Counted from the stretch's first letter, positions 35,326 to 39,553 are shown. The stretch: 39,553 bases of DNA from Candidatus Falkowbacteria bacterium (GCA_037134915.1 JBAXLJ010000005.1:1-39553); one strand, 5' to 3'. Notes: a model not told the origin generated them from the sequence alone. Numbers and translations: made by a program.

Positions 35326-38300
35326 ATGCAGAATAACAGAACTAAGTGGAAAAAGCTGGGGATCGGTCTGATTATTACCAGTGCCATTTTCACTTTTCTA
35401 ATCTTACAAACTAAGGCGGCTGAGCAATCAGATGCTATTGGCGTTAGAGTAATGCCTAACCCTAATCATGATAGTATCGAGAGCTGGTATGCGAAGCAAG
35501 GTTTTAGAGGCTCGCCCCAAAGTCTGATTGTTGATGGTTATGAAGCAATTCGCGACGGCCGAACAGTTTTTGTAAACGCGGCTAATCTAGATACGGTTGG
35601 CAACAAGCTTTACACTAATGTTTATCTAATTTCTTATAATCAAGAATCAGCTCCTAAGACAGTGGATATTTTGGGACAATTAGTTTCTCATTGGAAGTTT
35701 AATAACAATGTCGTGGCACCTGGTCAGTGTTCAATTTCCAATAAGCTTTGCCAGGCTGATTCCGATTGTGCTAAAGATTATATTTGTTCTAACTCGGCCA
35801 CTAGCCCTAGCCAAGGGAAATGTGTCTTAAAAGATAACAAGCAATGCTTAATTGATAGTGACTGCCCAATTAGTCTGTTCTGTGACAGCTTAAAAGCTAA
35901 GTTAACTCGTGATGTTAAGCGTTTAGGTGCGCTTAATCAACTAAAAGATTTAGCTGAAAGTTACAAGGTAATAAACGGCACTTATCCCGGTTTGCAGGCT
36001 GGCACTTATGTTCTGGGTAATAGTATTTCTCTCTGGCCGAGTTGGCAACAAACTCTAGGTCCGCAAATAAAGTTAACCCAACCGGTTATTGATCCGATAA
36101 ATATTTTAGGCTACTGTGCTGGCTATGATGCTACTACTTGTTGGAATAATAATACCAACGAATTTGTGAGTCCTAAACTAGTCTTGCCTTATGGTAGCTA
36201 TGCTTTGATGTACGGAGCCACTTCGAATGGTGTTAATTATAATTTATGTGCTGTTTTTGAATCGAAGAGTGCTGGCATTGATACCGCTGAAGGTAAATTC
36301 ACCGCCAGTTCTTGTGCTGTGGGAGCCGGTTACAGCGGTTCCAACTCTAATACAGCGCCAGTTCTAATTAGTTCTTACACCGACGGCGAGACCGGCAAAG
36401 AATTTAATGGTTATGTCAGAGCTCAAGACACTGAAGGCGATCAAATTTTTTGGAAACTAACCCCATCTTCTGGGGCCTGGTCATCTTGGAGCGCCGCCCC
36501 GGTTTTGCAAGACGCTGGCAGTAATAATCAAAAAAAGATTTATGCCTTAAAGACAGGAGCGCCCGGAGTTTATAAAATGCTTTTAACTTTAAGTGATAGT
36601 CGTGGCGCAGCTAGTAGCACCACTTTAACTTTTAATGTTAGTGCGGCCAATAAACCAGTGATTGAAGCTGATAGCATTGATTACTATGTTGATCCAATCA
36701 ACCCACTTAAATATACTTTTTATATTCAGGGAAGCAATTCAATCCCTGCTATTTCCAATTTTTCTTTTAAGCCTCTTAACGCTGGATTTAACCAAGCGAT
36801 TAACAGTCAGATAACGGGCTATACACCAACTTTAACGATGGTTGGTTTGAATCGCGTTAAAGTTGATTATTCAATTTTAATCTCCCCATCGGCTAAAATT
36901 CCCGTCGACATTACTTTGCCGTATCGTATTTCAGCTACAGTTAACGGTGCGACGGCCACTAAAGATGTTAATCTTAATTTAAAGATAGAGCAGCCTTATT
37001 TAGATTTTGAATGTGAAAATATGGCTCGTTTTGGTAAGCCTTACCAGATAAGCACCACCAATATTCCTCGTTCATGTTTACTTGGTAGCTTAAAGAGCGG
37101 CAACCATAGTTTAACTTATAGCGTTACCAGCACAACTAGTGCCACTAGTTTAATAATCAGAACCGATGCCACTAGCTCCAATGCTTATTTAGAAGCGCCT
37201 TTTATTTCTGGTACAGTCGGTCCTAATGCCATTAGTGTCAAGGCAACTAACGAATACGGAGCGTCTTCAACCAAAATTTTTAATTTAAATATTAATAATT
37301 TTTGTGGTGACGGTATTAAGCAGCAGCCTAACACAGAAGGTCGCGGGGGTTTTTATAATGATGGCAATGAAGCTTGTGATGGTGCCGCGGGGGTAATTAC
37401 AAGTACAATTAGCACTTCTTCGGATTTGCAATACGGTTGCACAACCAACGGTGATTCACCTTATCCTATTCTAAATAATCAAAGCTGCGTCTTTAAACCA
37501 GGTGATAATGGCGGCGGCTATTGTGGAGACGGTCTTTGCCAATTTCAAATTCCGGTCAATGGTCAACCTCAAGCCATGGAAAATTGTTGGAATTGTCAGC
37601 AGGATTGTGGTTCTTGTATCGCGACTATTACTTCTAACGCCGATCAAGAGCATATAGTTTATGCTAATGCGACTCGTCTTTATAAAGAAACTAGTGCGAC
37701 CGCTATCGATACGGCGACTACAACCTTAATTGCTGGCAAAAATGTCTTTGCTTTTTGGAATAGCAATTTAAATGATGCGGGCTATGGTTTAGCTTTTAAA
37801 ATAAACATTGGACCGAGCCCCATGAATAATAATGTTACCGTTACTAGTTTCGCGGAATTTAATGGCAGTAATGTTGGTGTGAAGTGTAGTCCAGCCCCTA
37901 GTTTAGGCGGTGTTTTATCGGCTGTCGACTATGAACCAGCTTCTTTATCGGCTTGGACGACTCCAGGATTTAATGACTCCTCTTGGCTTAGCCCGGCCCT
38001 GATTACGGCCCGAGCCTTGTTTCTCGGCGGCCCCTATATTTGGGATCAAAATACACCTGCTTCCGGTGGCGCTGTTTTCTGTCGTCTTAGTTTTCAATAT
38101 GATCCTTATTCAATGTCGATGTGTACTCGAAACTGTTCCGGAAAAACTTGTGGTCCGGATGGCTGCGGTAATATCTGTGGCTTCTGTGCTAGTGGTCAAA
38201 CTTGCGCCGCTAATGGTACCTGCGCCTGTACACCAATATCTTGCGCAGGACGAACCTGTGGTTCTGATGGTTGCGGCGGCACCTGCGGTGCCGGTGCTTG

Positions 38301-39553
38301 TCCAACTAACTACGAATGTTCAACGGTTTCTGGCACTTGCGTTTTAAAAAATGATTGTGGACTTAGAACTTGTGGCTTAGATAGTTATGGTAACACTTGT
38401 GGTACTTGTAATGGTACTTGTCTAGGCGGCAGTTGTATTCCTAATTCCGATTGTGCTACCAAACAATGTGGTTATGATTCAGTAACCGGCGCTCCTTGCG
38501 GAACTTGTGATCCGACTAAAGTTTGTACCTCGGCTGGCCAATGCGCGTGCGCTGTTGGCACTTGTGGTGCAACTTGCGCTACTTGTCCGACCGGAACTGT
38601 TTGTTCTGGTACTACGGCCACTGATACCTGTATTTGTAGTCCAACTTGTGCCGGCAAAACTTGCGGCGGCGATGATGGCTGTGGCGGAAAATGCACGGTG
38701 GCTAGTTTTGGTACTAATTCTTGTGTCACTTATGGTTTTGATCTAGGGACCTTAACTTGTGTAAACGGCCAAGTTAGTACGGCTGGCTGCTCAAAAACCC
38801 CAGTCTGTAAGCCAACTACTACTTGCGCCACAGCCGGCATGGTCTGTGGAACTTTTGTGGATGATTGTGGAAATTCTATTCAATGTGGTGGCTGTGATGA
38901 TAATAATATTTGTACCACCGACGCCTGCGGTGCTGGCGGAAAATGCTCCTTCACGATTAACTCTAATAAAGTAAGTTGTAGTTCTCCTTATGGTACTTGT
39001 TCAATTTCCGGTCAGTATTCTTGCGGGGCCAATGGTCTTTTAGGCACAACTTGTAATCCTTTAACTGATCCCGTGACAACTTATTGCGCTGGTAAAGCTT
39101 GTGGCTTAGATGCTTGTGGTAATATTTGCGGTCCGGGTTGTGCCAGCGGTCAAACTTGCAACGGTGGCGTTTGTACAACAGCTGTTTGTACGCCTCAATG
39201 TACTGGAAAAAATTGTGGTTCCGATGGTTGTGGTGGTTACTGTGGTTCAAATGGCGGCGCCTGCACAGGAACTAATACTTGTTCGGCCTCAGGGGTTTGT
39301 ACGGCCCCTATTTGTACGCCTCAATGTACTGGAAAAAATTGTGGTTCCGATGGTTGTGGCGGCTACTGTGGTTCAAATGGCGGCGGCTGTGCCTCTGGTC
39401 AAACTTGCAACACTTCCGGTGTCTGTGTGTCTACTTGTACACCTAGTTGTACTGGAAAAAATTGTGGTTCCGATGGTTGTGGTGGCACCTGTGGAACAAA
39501 TGCAGGTAGTTGTGCCGCTGGTCAAACTTGCAACACTTCCGGTGTCTGTGTGT
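35326..39553 (+). CDS. Giant Cys-rich surface protein, 3'-partial (at least 1409 aa), NOT in the supplied ORF track. It has an N-terminal signal/anchor, Ig/He_PIG-like repeats, CGDG...CDG repeats, a jelly-roll-like region and a terminal CxGKxCGxDGCGGxCG repeat array
   Basis: Manual frame-1 translation from ATG 35326 (MQNNRTKWKKLGIGLIITSAIFTFLILQTKAAEQ...) found no stop. The whole reading frame was read through, and codon phase was re-checked row by row at about 18 of the 60-nt rows. The start is 27 nt after the upstream stop, on the same strand. All track ORFs in this span are short and either off-frame or antisense. Confidence 0.85.
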   Translation, partial: MQNNRTKWKKLGIGLIITSAIFTFLILQTKAAEQSDAIGVRVMPNPNHDSIESWYAKQGFRGSPQSLIVDGYEAIRDGRTVFVNAANLDTVGNKLYTNVYLISYNQESAPKTVDILGQLVSHWKFNNNVVAPGQCSISNKLCQADSDCAKDYICSNSATSPSQGKCVLKDNKQCLIDSDCPISLFCDSLKAKLTRDVKRLGALNQLKDLAESYKVINGTYPGLQAGTYVLGNSISLWPSWQQTLGPQIKLTQPVIDPINILGYCAGYDATTCWNNNTNEFVSPKLVLPYGSYALMYGATSNGVNYNLCAVFESKSAGIDTAEGKFTASSCAVGAGYSGSNSNTAPVLISSYTDGETGKEFNGYVRAQDTEGDQIFWKLTPSSGAWSSWSAAPVLQDAGSNNQKKIYALKTGAPGVYKMLLTLSDSRGAASSTTLTFNVSAANKPVIEADSIDYYVDPINPLKYTFYIQGSNSIPAISNFSFKPLNAGFNQAINSQITGYTPTLTMVGLNRVKVDYSILISPSAKIPVDITLPYRISATVNGATATKDVNLNLKIEQPYLDFECENMARFGKPYQISTTNIPRSCLLGSLKSGNHSLTYSVTSTTSATSLIIRTDATSSNAYLEAPFISGTVGPNAISVKATNEYGASSTKIFNLNINNFCGDGIKQQPNTEGRGGFYNDGNEACDGAAGVITSTISTSSDLQYGCTTNGDSPYPILNNQSCVFKPGDNGGGYCGDGLCQFQIPVNGQPQAMENCWNCQQDCGSCIATITSNADQEHIVYANATRLYKETSATAIDTATTTLIAGKNVFAFWNSNLNDAGYGLAFKINIGPSPMNNNVTVTSFAEFNGSNVGVKCSPAPSLGGVLSAVDYEPASLSAWTTPGFNDSSWLSPALITARALFLGGPYIWDQNTPASGGAVFCRLSFQYDPYSMSMCTRNCSGKTCGPDGCGNICGFCASGQTCAANGTCACTPISCAGRTCGSDGCGGTCGAGACPTNYECSTVSGTCVLKNDCGLRTCGLDSYGNTCGTCNGTCLGGSCIPNSDCATKQCGYDSVTGAPCGTCDPTKVCTSAGQCACAVGTCGATCATCPTGTVCSGTTATDTCICSPTCAGKTCGGDDGCGGKCTVASFGTNSCVTYGFDLGTLTCVNGQVSTAGCSKTPVCKPTTTCATAGMVCGTFVDDCGNSIQCGGCDDNNICTTDACGAGGKCSFTINSNKVSCSSPYGTCSISGQYSCGANGLLGTTCNPLTDPVTTYCAGKACGLDACGNICGPGCASGQTCNGGVCTTAVCTPQCTGKNCGSDGCGGYCGSNGGACTGTNTCSASGVCTAPICTPQCTGKNCGSDGCGGYCGSNGGGCASGQTCNTSGVCVSTCTPSCTGKNCGSDGCGGTCGTNAGSCAAGQTCNTSGVCV
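38119..39553 (+). repeat. Coding array of about 10 Cys/Gly-rich modules (about 38-42 aa each, consensus C-x-G-K/R-x-C-G-x-D-G-C-G-G-x-C-G). The last three copies form 123-126-bp near-identical DNA repeats that run off the window
   Basis: tttgtacgcctcaatgtactggaaaaaattgtggttccgatggttgtgg occurs at 39185 and 39311 (126-nt period), with a variant at about 39434. ggtcaaacttgcaacacttccggtgtctgtgtgt occurs at 39397 and again at 39520 (123-nt period), where the window ends. Confidence 0.9.

Follow-up and report, generated by a model that had tools for sequence, protein, structure and literature searches.

Recent tandem duplicates of a 123-nt unit in a cysteine-rich module array that is divided between two contigs of an ultra-small bacterial genome

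Surface proteins built of near-identical repeats in variable number are documented among isolates of streptococci (alpha C and Rib) and staphylococci (the G5-E repeats of SasG and Aap). Cysteine-rich repeats are represented by TIGR04201, the Cys-rich repeat stalk of Myxococcus xanthus TraA, and by TIGR02232, the Myxococcus cysteine-rich repeat. Here we describe an array of modules with eight cysteines each, located at the 3' end of a contig of Candidatus Falkowbacteria bacterium (GCA_037134915.1 JBAXLJ010000005.1:1-39553). The window analysed is this entire contig, designated C5 (39553 nucleotides, nt). The host genome (G000) is ultra-small and of Patescibacteria type, with 980 kb in 9 contigs and 38% G+C. 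The array occupies the distal part of an open reading frame (ORF), 35326..39552, whose frame is open at the C5 end and whose continuation is C4:2-802 on another contig, C4.

The locus resembles the streptococcal and staphylococcal proteins in that its head-to-tail repeats appear to be kept similar in DNA sequence by unequal recombination and that the repeats break short-read assemblies. Those surface proteins are extended, with a length determined by repeat number, and here module number would likewise determine how long the outer part of the protein is. Their repeats are, however, larger, cysteine-free and beta-rich, and at this locus variation in number was seen only between species. With the TraA stalk the array shares the concept of a Cys-rich repeat run that holds a functional domain away from the cell, but TIGR04201 and TIGR02232 are without a match here, which indicates a different repeat family. 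Eukaryotic EGF-like, LDL-receptor class A and hevein/WGA repeats and Dicty_CTDC (PF00526) are alike in size and cysteine content (~40 amino acids, aa; 6-8 Cys), in their beads-on-string arrangement and in a beta-hairpin, which is modelled, at low confidence, in the C-terminal half of the module. They differ in that no Pfam match is obtained at E<=10, and the best Foldseek matches (LA repeats of megalin, WGA, EGF of factor Xa) are not significant (E 0.3-10, template modelling score <=0.2). Secreted proteins of Myxococcota type have the same motif, the same Cys spacing and head-to-tail arrays; the window modules are 50-69% identical to four-module stretches of these proteins, and profile E-values go down to 0. 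Their modules separate, spacer-like, domains for catalysis or binding from an anchor at the C-terminus. In contrast to these carriers, the host described here is an ultra-small Patescibacteria-type genome with one module gene only, and its young copies have a four-residue insertion and a period of 123-126 nt, compared with 111 nt in siblings.

We consider it highly probable that the gene split between C5 and C4 encodes a secreted protein of ~1644 (or 1685) aa with a tail of 8-Cys modules, 36-42 aa each, that the last four (possibly five) of these modules are recent tandem duplicates of a 123-nt unit, and that the array is homogenised in its interior and differs in module number between species.

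At the DNA level, the region has a sole array according to Tandem Repeats Finder; it spans 39186-39553 and consists of 3.0 copies with period 123 (82% matches, score 412). Repeat scan delimits its copies as 39182-39304, 39308-39430 and 39431-39553, which follow one another at distances of 126 and 123 nt. The copies are connected by four exact shared runs, two of them with a shift of 126 (39185-39233 = 39311-39359, 49 nt; 39238-39259 = 39364-39385, 22 nt) and two with a shift of 123 (39325-39359 = 39448-39482, 35 nt; 39395-39430 = 39518-39553, 36 nt). An earlier note on this DNA had reported identical stretches of about 50 and about 34 nt at these spacings, and the runs found are not much shorter. 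It had also placed the end of the window within a repeat and counted about 8 Cys per 40 residues; both statements are accurate, since the last module is interrupted at the true contig end and each late module contains 8 Cys in 41-42 aa.

To separate age from conservation of the protein, the share of identical codons at positions with the same amino acid was determined in codon-aligned modules (designated m1, m2 and so on; Table 1) and compared with the expectation from the gene's own codon usage. Late pairs use the same codon at 29/33 (m10-m11; 14.9 expected), 24/31 (m9-m10; 14.0 expected) and 24/30 positions (m11-m13; 13.0 expected), whereas early pairs are at expectation (m1-m2, 8/18 vs 8.8; m1-m8, 10/21 vs 10.3). 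The late copies are thus young duplicates of DNA and not merely a conserved protein, and the array does become more uniform toward the contig end, as had been proposed.

Module m10 is itself a mosaic. At sites where m9 and m11 differ, it follows m9 to position 74 and m11 from position 75 (pattern AAAABAAAAAAAABABBBB...); the maximum chi-square of 28.5 was reached in 0 of 5000 permutations (p<0.0002). The same kind of switch is observed in m11, between m13 and m10 (p = 0.0004). When the unit is shifted by half a module, its first copy (39388-39510) and its last (C4:53-175) are identical at 117 of 123 positions (95%). The simplest reading is that the duplicated unit would comprise 123 nt, offset by half a module; since such a unit ends in mid-module, the modules look like mosaics. 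Shared synonymous sites, the mosaic and the shifted unit together bear out the recent duplication or recombination that the earlier note had suspected.

Contig C4 starts with AAATTGTGGTTCCGATGGTTGTGG..., that is, with the same repeat that ends C5. Its frame 2 reads NCGSDGCGGTCGTNAGSCAAGQTCNTSGVCVST, followed by one more module, a cap module and ~140 residues, with a stop at C4:800-802. Elsewhere in the 980-kb genome the repeat core is found on C4 only, and the module profile matches the array gene only. Over 95 nt, the end of C5 and the start of C4 share 97.9% identity, the two differences between them being synonymous. Given this near-identity, the two ends represent either the same module in two variants (1644 aa) or two adjacent modules (1685 aa). 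Homology to the orthologue in the related genome G009 (its residues 778-928; 39% identity, E 2e-23) extends over residues 125-264 of the C4 ORF; in G009 the homologue of the C-terminal ~140 aa of C4 shares an ORF with the conserved N-terminal region. Further, two TSP3-repeat genes directly follow the orthologue in all six relatives checked (G001, G006, G007, G008, G002 and G019), as they do on C4. Because of this homology and the conserved downstream gene pair the two contigs can be joined, and the comparison shows that what is predicted as one gene was split by the assembler. The repeat had been held responsible for the break. This is supported by the start of C4 in the same repeat with the frame kept, by an independent k=31 assembly of public run X1, which breaks at 39228, and by a gap of N (G008) and ambiguous bases (G002) within sibling arrays.

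Orthologues of the non-repeat part (residues 1-931) were found in 54 of 61 related genomes; of the 41 genomes of the family, only 17 carry the module. Within the genus, canonical modules are absent from the orthologues of G009 and G019; there is one in G006 (two further cap-like units are visible in translation). G001 has two, including a variant one; G002 has seven, and an additional one is hidden by ambiguous bases; G008 has nine with a gap and G007 ten. Variation in module number, earlier put forward as a possibility, is therefore real between species of the genus, where it ranges from 0 to ~10. The G007 array has a period of 111 (6.1 copies) and a higher-order period of 222 (3.2 copies, 89% matches); the array of G008 has 5.5 copies.

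For 29 modules aligned by codon, a maximum-likelihood tree was constructed. In it, well-supported groups unite modules of G002, G007 and G008 across species boundaries at either end of the array (first and last modules) and at some positions near the edges, as exemplified by the mixed clades G007_10+G002_7+G008_9 (99/96) and G002_1+G007_1 (97/91), and interior modules form species-only clades. Species labels require 10 changes on this tree compared with 16.4 in shuffles, and 0 of 200 shuffles are as low. Conserved edges together with a homogenised interior are a signature of unequal crossing-over. The locus thus displays the marks of concerted evolution, namely an excess of shared synonymous sites, clustering of interior modules by species and of edge modules by position (on the module tree and in a nearest-neighbour table), and copy number that differs between related genomes.

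Several other observations were made in the relatives. The run of N in G008 lies on contig 18 (L032) at ~2900-3100, between two identical modules, and the ambiguous bases of G002 (L033) are inside the array of a single-contig genome. G007 contig 2 (L034) contains two paralogues of the gene ~2.4 kb apart (129-4211 and 6580-9756), the first with ten modules, the second without modules and with a different C-terminal domain. A beta-rich domain of ~170 aa (37600-38118 in the window) precedes the array in G000, G001 and G006, and one of similar appearance lies after the array in G002, G007 and G008 (for example L034 ~3400-4211). BLASTP comparison of the domain before the array (37600-38118) with that after it (L034 ~3400-4211) gave no homology (E 0.24) to support a suspected change in domain order.

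Copy number in the sample was estimated from simplified k=31 contigs of public runs X1-X5, whose depths are averages taken once the graph had been simplified. Of the sampled words, 93% are present in run X1 (freshwater, 2020). Flank contigs have depths of 40.3 and 39.4, and the long one stops inside the first young module. Depths of the short repeat contigs are 22.8 for the C5-type junction, 48.4 for the C4-type junction, 95 for a shared 34-mer, 66.6 for a 62-mer common to C4-type modules and 52.6 for a 79-nt contig. The two types of entry into the repeat core add up to 143 (95 + 48.4). Relative to the flank depth of 40 this is ~3.6-fold, where the assembly contains 4-5 copies. The depth of the 79-nt contig is predicted as 52.2 by a 4-copy model and as 80.8 by a 5-copy model. 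The core sum of ~3.6 copies per genome and the depth of the 79-nt contig give no sign of a large collapsed array, and they suggest four young copies as the better estimate, possibly five. A mixture of 4-copy and 3-copy genomes was also considered; it accounts for three of the depths but not for that of the 79-nt contig (35 predicted vs 52.6 observed), and a two-allele model is preferred to it. As to near-identical strains, an exact 33-nt pattern gave 0 matches in metagenome contigs, and in an exact look-up the downstream TSP3 protein was not on record, among records from which close relatives of this genome may be missing.

Uniformity of the late copies could in principle result from strong protein constraint and codon bias acting on Cys/Gly-rich modules instead of recent duplication. 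Cys and Gly indeed dominate, with TGT and GGT favoured, and chance identity is thereby raised to ~45% expected. Early modules with the same conserved residues nevertheless share codons only at expectation, in contrast to the late pairs, and variable residues are included in the exact runs of 35-49 nt. The codon test refutes this explanation, and we hold it to be very improbable. Misassembly, for instance a contig end that is chimeric or duplicated, is conceivable given the location at the end of a contig in a metagenome-assembled genome; we attach still less credence to it, as X5 contigs, which come from a different study (2018), exactly match 39260-39354 and 39325-39477 and so span the m9-m10 and m10-m11 junctions, and the C4 junctions are present in X1 and X3 contigs. 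The arrangement is thus real, and by the exact X5 matches over m9-m10-m11 it has persisted. Somewhat more weight, though still little, can be given to the idea that many more identical copies were collapsed and that the array is long and hypervariable, like a contingency locus. A contig break in the repeat, the gap in a sibling's array and the raised depth of the shared 34-mer (95 vs 40) are what it would lead one to expect, and simplified contigs can understate depth. The core sum and the 79-nt contig, which matches the 4-copy and not the 5-copy prediction, speak against it, and the collapse of extra copies that the earlier note had envisaged is not supported.

A more serious contender, though one we still favour less than its negation, is that the C5 and C4 ends are the same module in two co-existing alleles, with four copies in both. 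In the C4-type allele five sites of the 5' half would have been overwritten by sequence of the next module, and the contig break would then reflect strain polymorphism that arose by intragenic gene conversion. This agrees with the two synonymous sites as the only differences between the 95-nt ends and with the unequal depths of the C5-type and C4-type junctions in X1. A two-allele 4-copy model (depths 22.8 + 17.2) predicts the other four contig depths within 8-18%, compared with a misfit of up to 75% for a single-allele 4-copy model and 20-75% for a 5-copy model. The simplified contigs of X1 lack the C5 variant (TGT/ACA), which would be expected if this variant formed the minor arm of a bubble. 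On the other hand, one free parameter is fitted here to five noisy numbers that are means after simplification, and the sites are unphased, so that the model provides only a lead. Another alternative concerns the chemistry of the modules, which might bind metal in the manner of metallothionein or MopE instead of being disulfide-bonded spacers. Very high Cys content and the nearly invariant Asp in CGxDGCGG are compatible with such a function. It is made unlikely, somewhat more so than the collapse of many copies, by the export signal of the protein and the DsbA and DsbB encoded in the genome, by the even number of cysteines (8) with spacing that is invariant across thousands of proteins carrying extracellular enzymes, and by the fact that no metal-binding family was matched.

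Some results weigh against the interpretation we prefer, i.e. a secreted protein with a recently duplicated array of disulfide-bonded modules. Copy number in the sample is derived from five short k-mer contigs with uneven depths (22.8-95 vs flank 40). AlphaFold was run on four modules with 59 sequences and on two canonical modules with 114 sequences; both models have a predicted local distance difference test (pLDDT) score of 62, the predicted template modelling scores are 0.26 and 0.32, and only the C-terminal hairpin of each module reaches a pLDDT of 75-82. With 62 obtained twice, neither fold nor disulfide pattern is readable from the models. Foldseek search of PDB with the four-module model gave nothing significant (best E 0.34). 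Finally, no contig over 26000-39553 was found in two metatranscriptomes of the same sample, which are small (46-61 Mb).

The modules conform to the consensus CxPxCxGK/RxCGxDGCGGxCGxC..GxxC..GxC, with 8 Cys in 36-42 aa, and the family profile matches the window with E 3e-15. Search with the 160-residue tail retrieved 851 proteins; they are of similar length, have many architectures and reach E-values as low as 1e-104. Named carriers include Myxococcota 'agmatine deiminase family' proteins, a GH9 endoglucanase, and lamin-tail, vWA, DUF4082 and metalloprotease-CAP proteins, with 3-27 modules per protein. A four-module profile run against 1.84 billion cluster representatives gave 6146 matches at E<=1e-3, 3421 at E<=1e-10 and 1031 at E<=1e-30; the 6146 protein clusters, many of which are from Myxococcota, are a lower bound for the family. 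In alignments with 58 and 113 homologous stretches all Cys columns are invariant, and D and G of the core are at least 90% conserved. The CGxC that directly follows the core is lacking in the young copies; similar longer loops occur in some relatives, and this departure is a variant, not a ground for excluding the young copies from the family.

Curated libraries returned nothing for these modules. No Pfam-A family matches 38119-39552, 39184-39552 or 37300-38118 at E<=10; in NCBIfam, TIGR04201 and TIGR02232 included, the array has no match at E<=10; canonical carriers of the module have none there at E<=1 and are likewise without a Pfam match; sequence search of PDB gave nothing at E<=10. Motif strings of the module occur in none of the full-text papers searched, and keyword matches concern only Giardia and other eukaryotes. 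Judging from these searches, the modules appear to form a large family that is uncatalogued in Pfam, NCBIfam and PDB and that would link diverse extracellular domains in thousands of bacterial proteins. One of the best module carriers, P0001 (metagenome, 1625 aa), looks eukaryote-like, of low complexity and rich in Asn and Ser, with reprolysin-type metalloprotease and CAP domains and a C-terminal transmembrane segment. Because of this eukaryote-like character, the module may not be confined to bacteria.

In thousands of other proteins modules separate functional domains from anchors, a position that suggests a spacer role. We infer that the modules would be disulfide-bonded beads, with four disulfides each, that form an extended, protease-resistant spacer or stalk.

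Layout of the Cys-rich region is summarised in Table 1. The earlier note had described about ten modules in a row. There are seven modules with the full motif (at 38122, 38227, 38632, 39082, 39187, 39313 and 39436) and three degenerate ones, but they are not contiguous, because a segment of other type stands between them; this segment has no match to the module profile. The core C-x-G-K/R-x-C-G-x-D-G-C-G-G-x-C-G is found at 38134, 38242, 39085, 39199, 39325 and 39448. After the core, young copies have CG-S/T-N-x-G-x-C (the four-residue insertion) in place of CGxC, which in the old copy m1 reads CGFC. Since the insertion is common to all young copies, they go back to one founder. Each of the two module runs is closed by a cap module with the variant motif CGGDDGCxGKC plus extension; these paralogues (38635-38793 and C4:215-373) are 51% identical over 53 aa (BLASTP, E 6e-19). 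From the similarity of the caps, it is probable that an older duplication of the whole run-plus-cap block preceded the recent one.

Table 1. Features of the array-bearing gene on contig C5 (positions in the window)
Feature	Coordinates	Strand	Basis
5' part of gene for large, probably secreted Cys-rich protein; 1409 codons	35326..39552	+	ORF list
m1, m2: two old divergent canonical 8-Cys modules	38122..38352	+	motif parse; profile match 38122-38343, E 3e-15
m3-m5: three degenerate modules, parts of CGxDGCGG core lost	38353..38631	+	translation, motif parse
Cap-type variant module, CxPxCxGKxCGGDDGCGGKC + 30-aa extension	38632..38802	+	BLASTP to C4:215-373 paralogue
Cys-rich segment of other type, contains CDDNNICTTDAC, interrupts module series	38803..39072 (~270 nt)	+	translation
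m8: canonical module, DNA still divergent (59-67% to late copies)	39082..39186	+	
m9: first young copy, 126 nt; 5' half common with m10, 3' half unique	39187..39312	+	
m10: mosaic, 123 nt; positions 1-74 m9-like, 75-123 m11-like	39313..39435	+	
123-nt unit that would actually be duplicated: 3' half of a module + 5' half of the next	39388..39510	+	
m11: truncated by contig end after 39/41 codons	39436..39553	+	

The array gene is the third in a row of genes for giant Cys-rich proteins. Its product has an N-terminal hydrophobic segment, signal- or anchor-like, and the two genes upstream encode N-termini similar to pilins of the type IV secretion system (T4SS-pilin-like). Downstream, on L001 (G000 contig C4), genes for TSP3-repeat (calcium-binding) proteins are located at 1132-1974 and 2174-3187 and SecD/SecF at 4031-5626. 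An envelope or surface role would fit these neighbours. The genome encodes two DsbA-like proteins (thioredoxin-fold) and one DsbB (C1:178915-179397, C2:26356-26820 and C2:271563-271823), which makes disulfide formation outside the cytoplasm feasible; a search of the 0.98-Mb genome for the VKOR family found it absent. The product is probably a secreted protein that needs disulfide bonds. It is a candidate for a surface location, and it might act as an adhesin. Retention of DsbA and DsbB in a genome of 0.98 Mb fits investment in very Cys-rich secreted proteins.

At the opposite end of the contig, positions 1-73 contain 4.1 perfect copies of an 18-nt unit, CAACTATTAATACAGAGC, within a 5'-open ORF (3..2825). 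This repeat represents a second repeat-caused assembly break, in a different large protein gene.

With the preferred reading of recent tandem duplication, the history of the array can be sketched as follows. A 123-nt unit would be duplicated in tandem by unequal crossing-over or replication slippage, and repeated cycles would expand, shrink and homogenise the interior of the array. Hence interior modules would come to be alike within a species, edge modules would stay orthologous between species, and module number would depend on species. With each 123-nt unit gained or lost, the outer part of the protein would become longer or shorter by a single bead and the reading frame would be preserved. 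Repeat-driven evolution of this kind is an ordinary, well-known mechanism for surface proteins built of repeats.

Several consequences follow from the finding. The 3' end of C5 can be joined to the 5' end of C4, by which a 1409-aa fragment becomes a complete gene model of ~1650 aa. As sibling genomes show assembly damage as well, lengths of such proteins in metagenome-assembled genomes need caution. A further, speculative and rather doubtful possibility is that the array is an active site of variation in a natural lake population, with two alleles of the third young module at ~55:45, one of them with a five-site conversion tract from the neighbouring module. Intragenic recombination would then be an ongoing process that remodels the outer portion of a surface protein, and occasionally alters its size, in a bacterium that is ultra-small and probably lives attached to a host, and might serve as a simple contingency mechanism that alters cell-cell contact or escapes recognition by phage or host. 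The locus provides a clean, quantified case of concerted evolution inside a candidate surface-protein gene of Patescibacteria, and the module family, with at least 6146 cluster representatives, is a clear candidate both for inclusion in a curated domain library and for a first structure determination.

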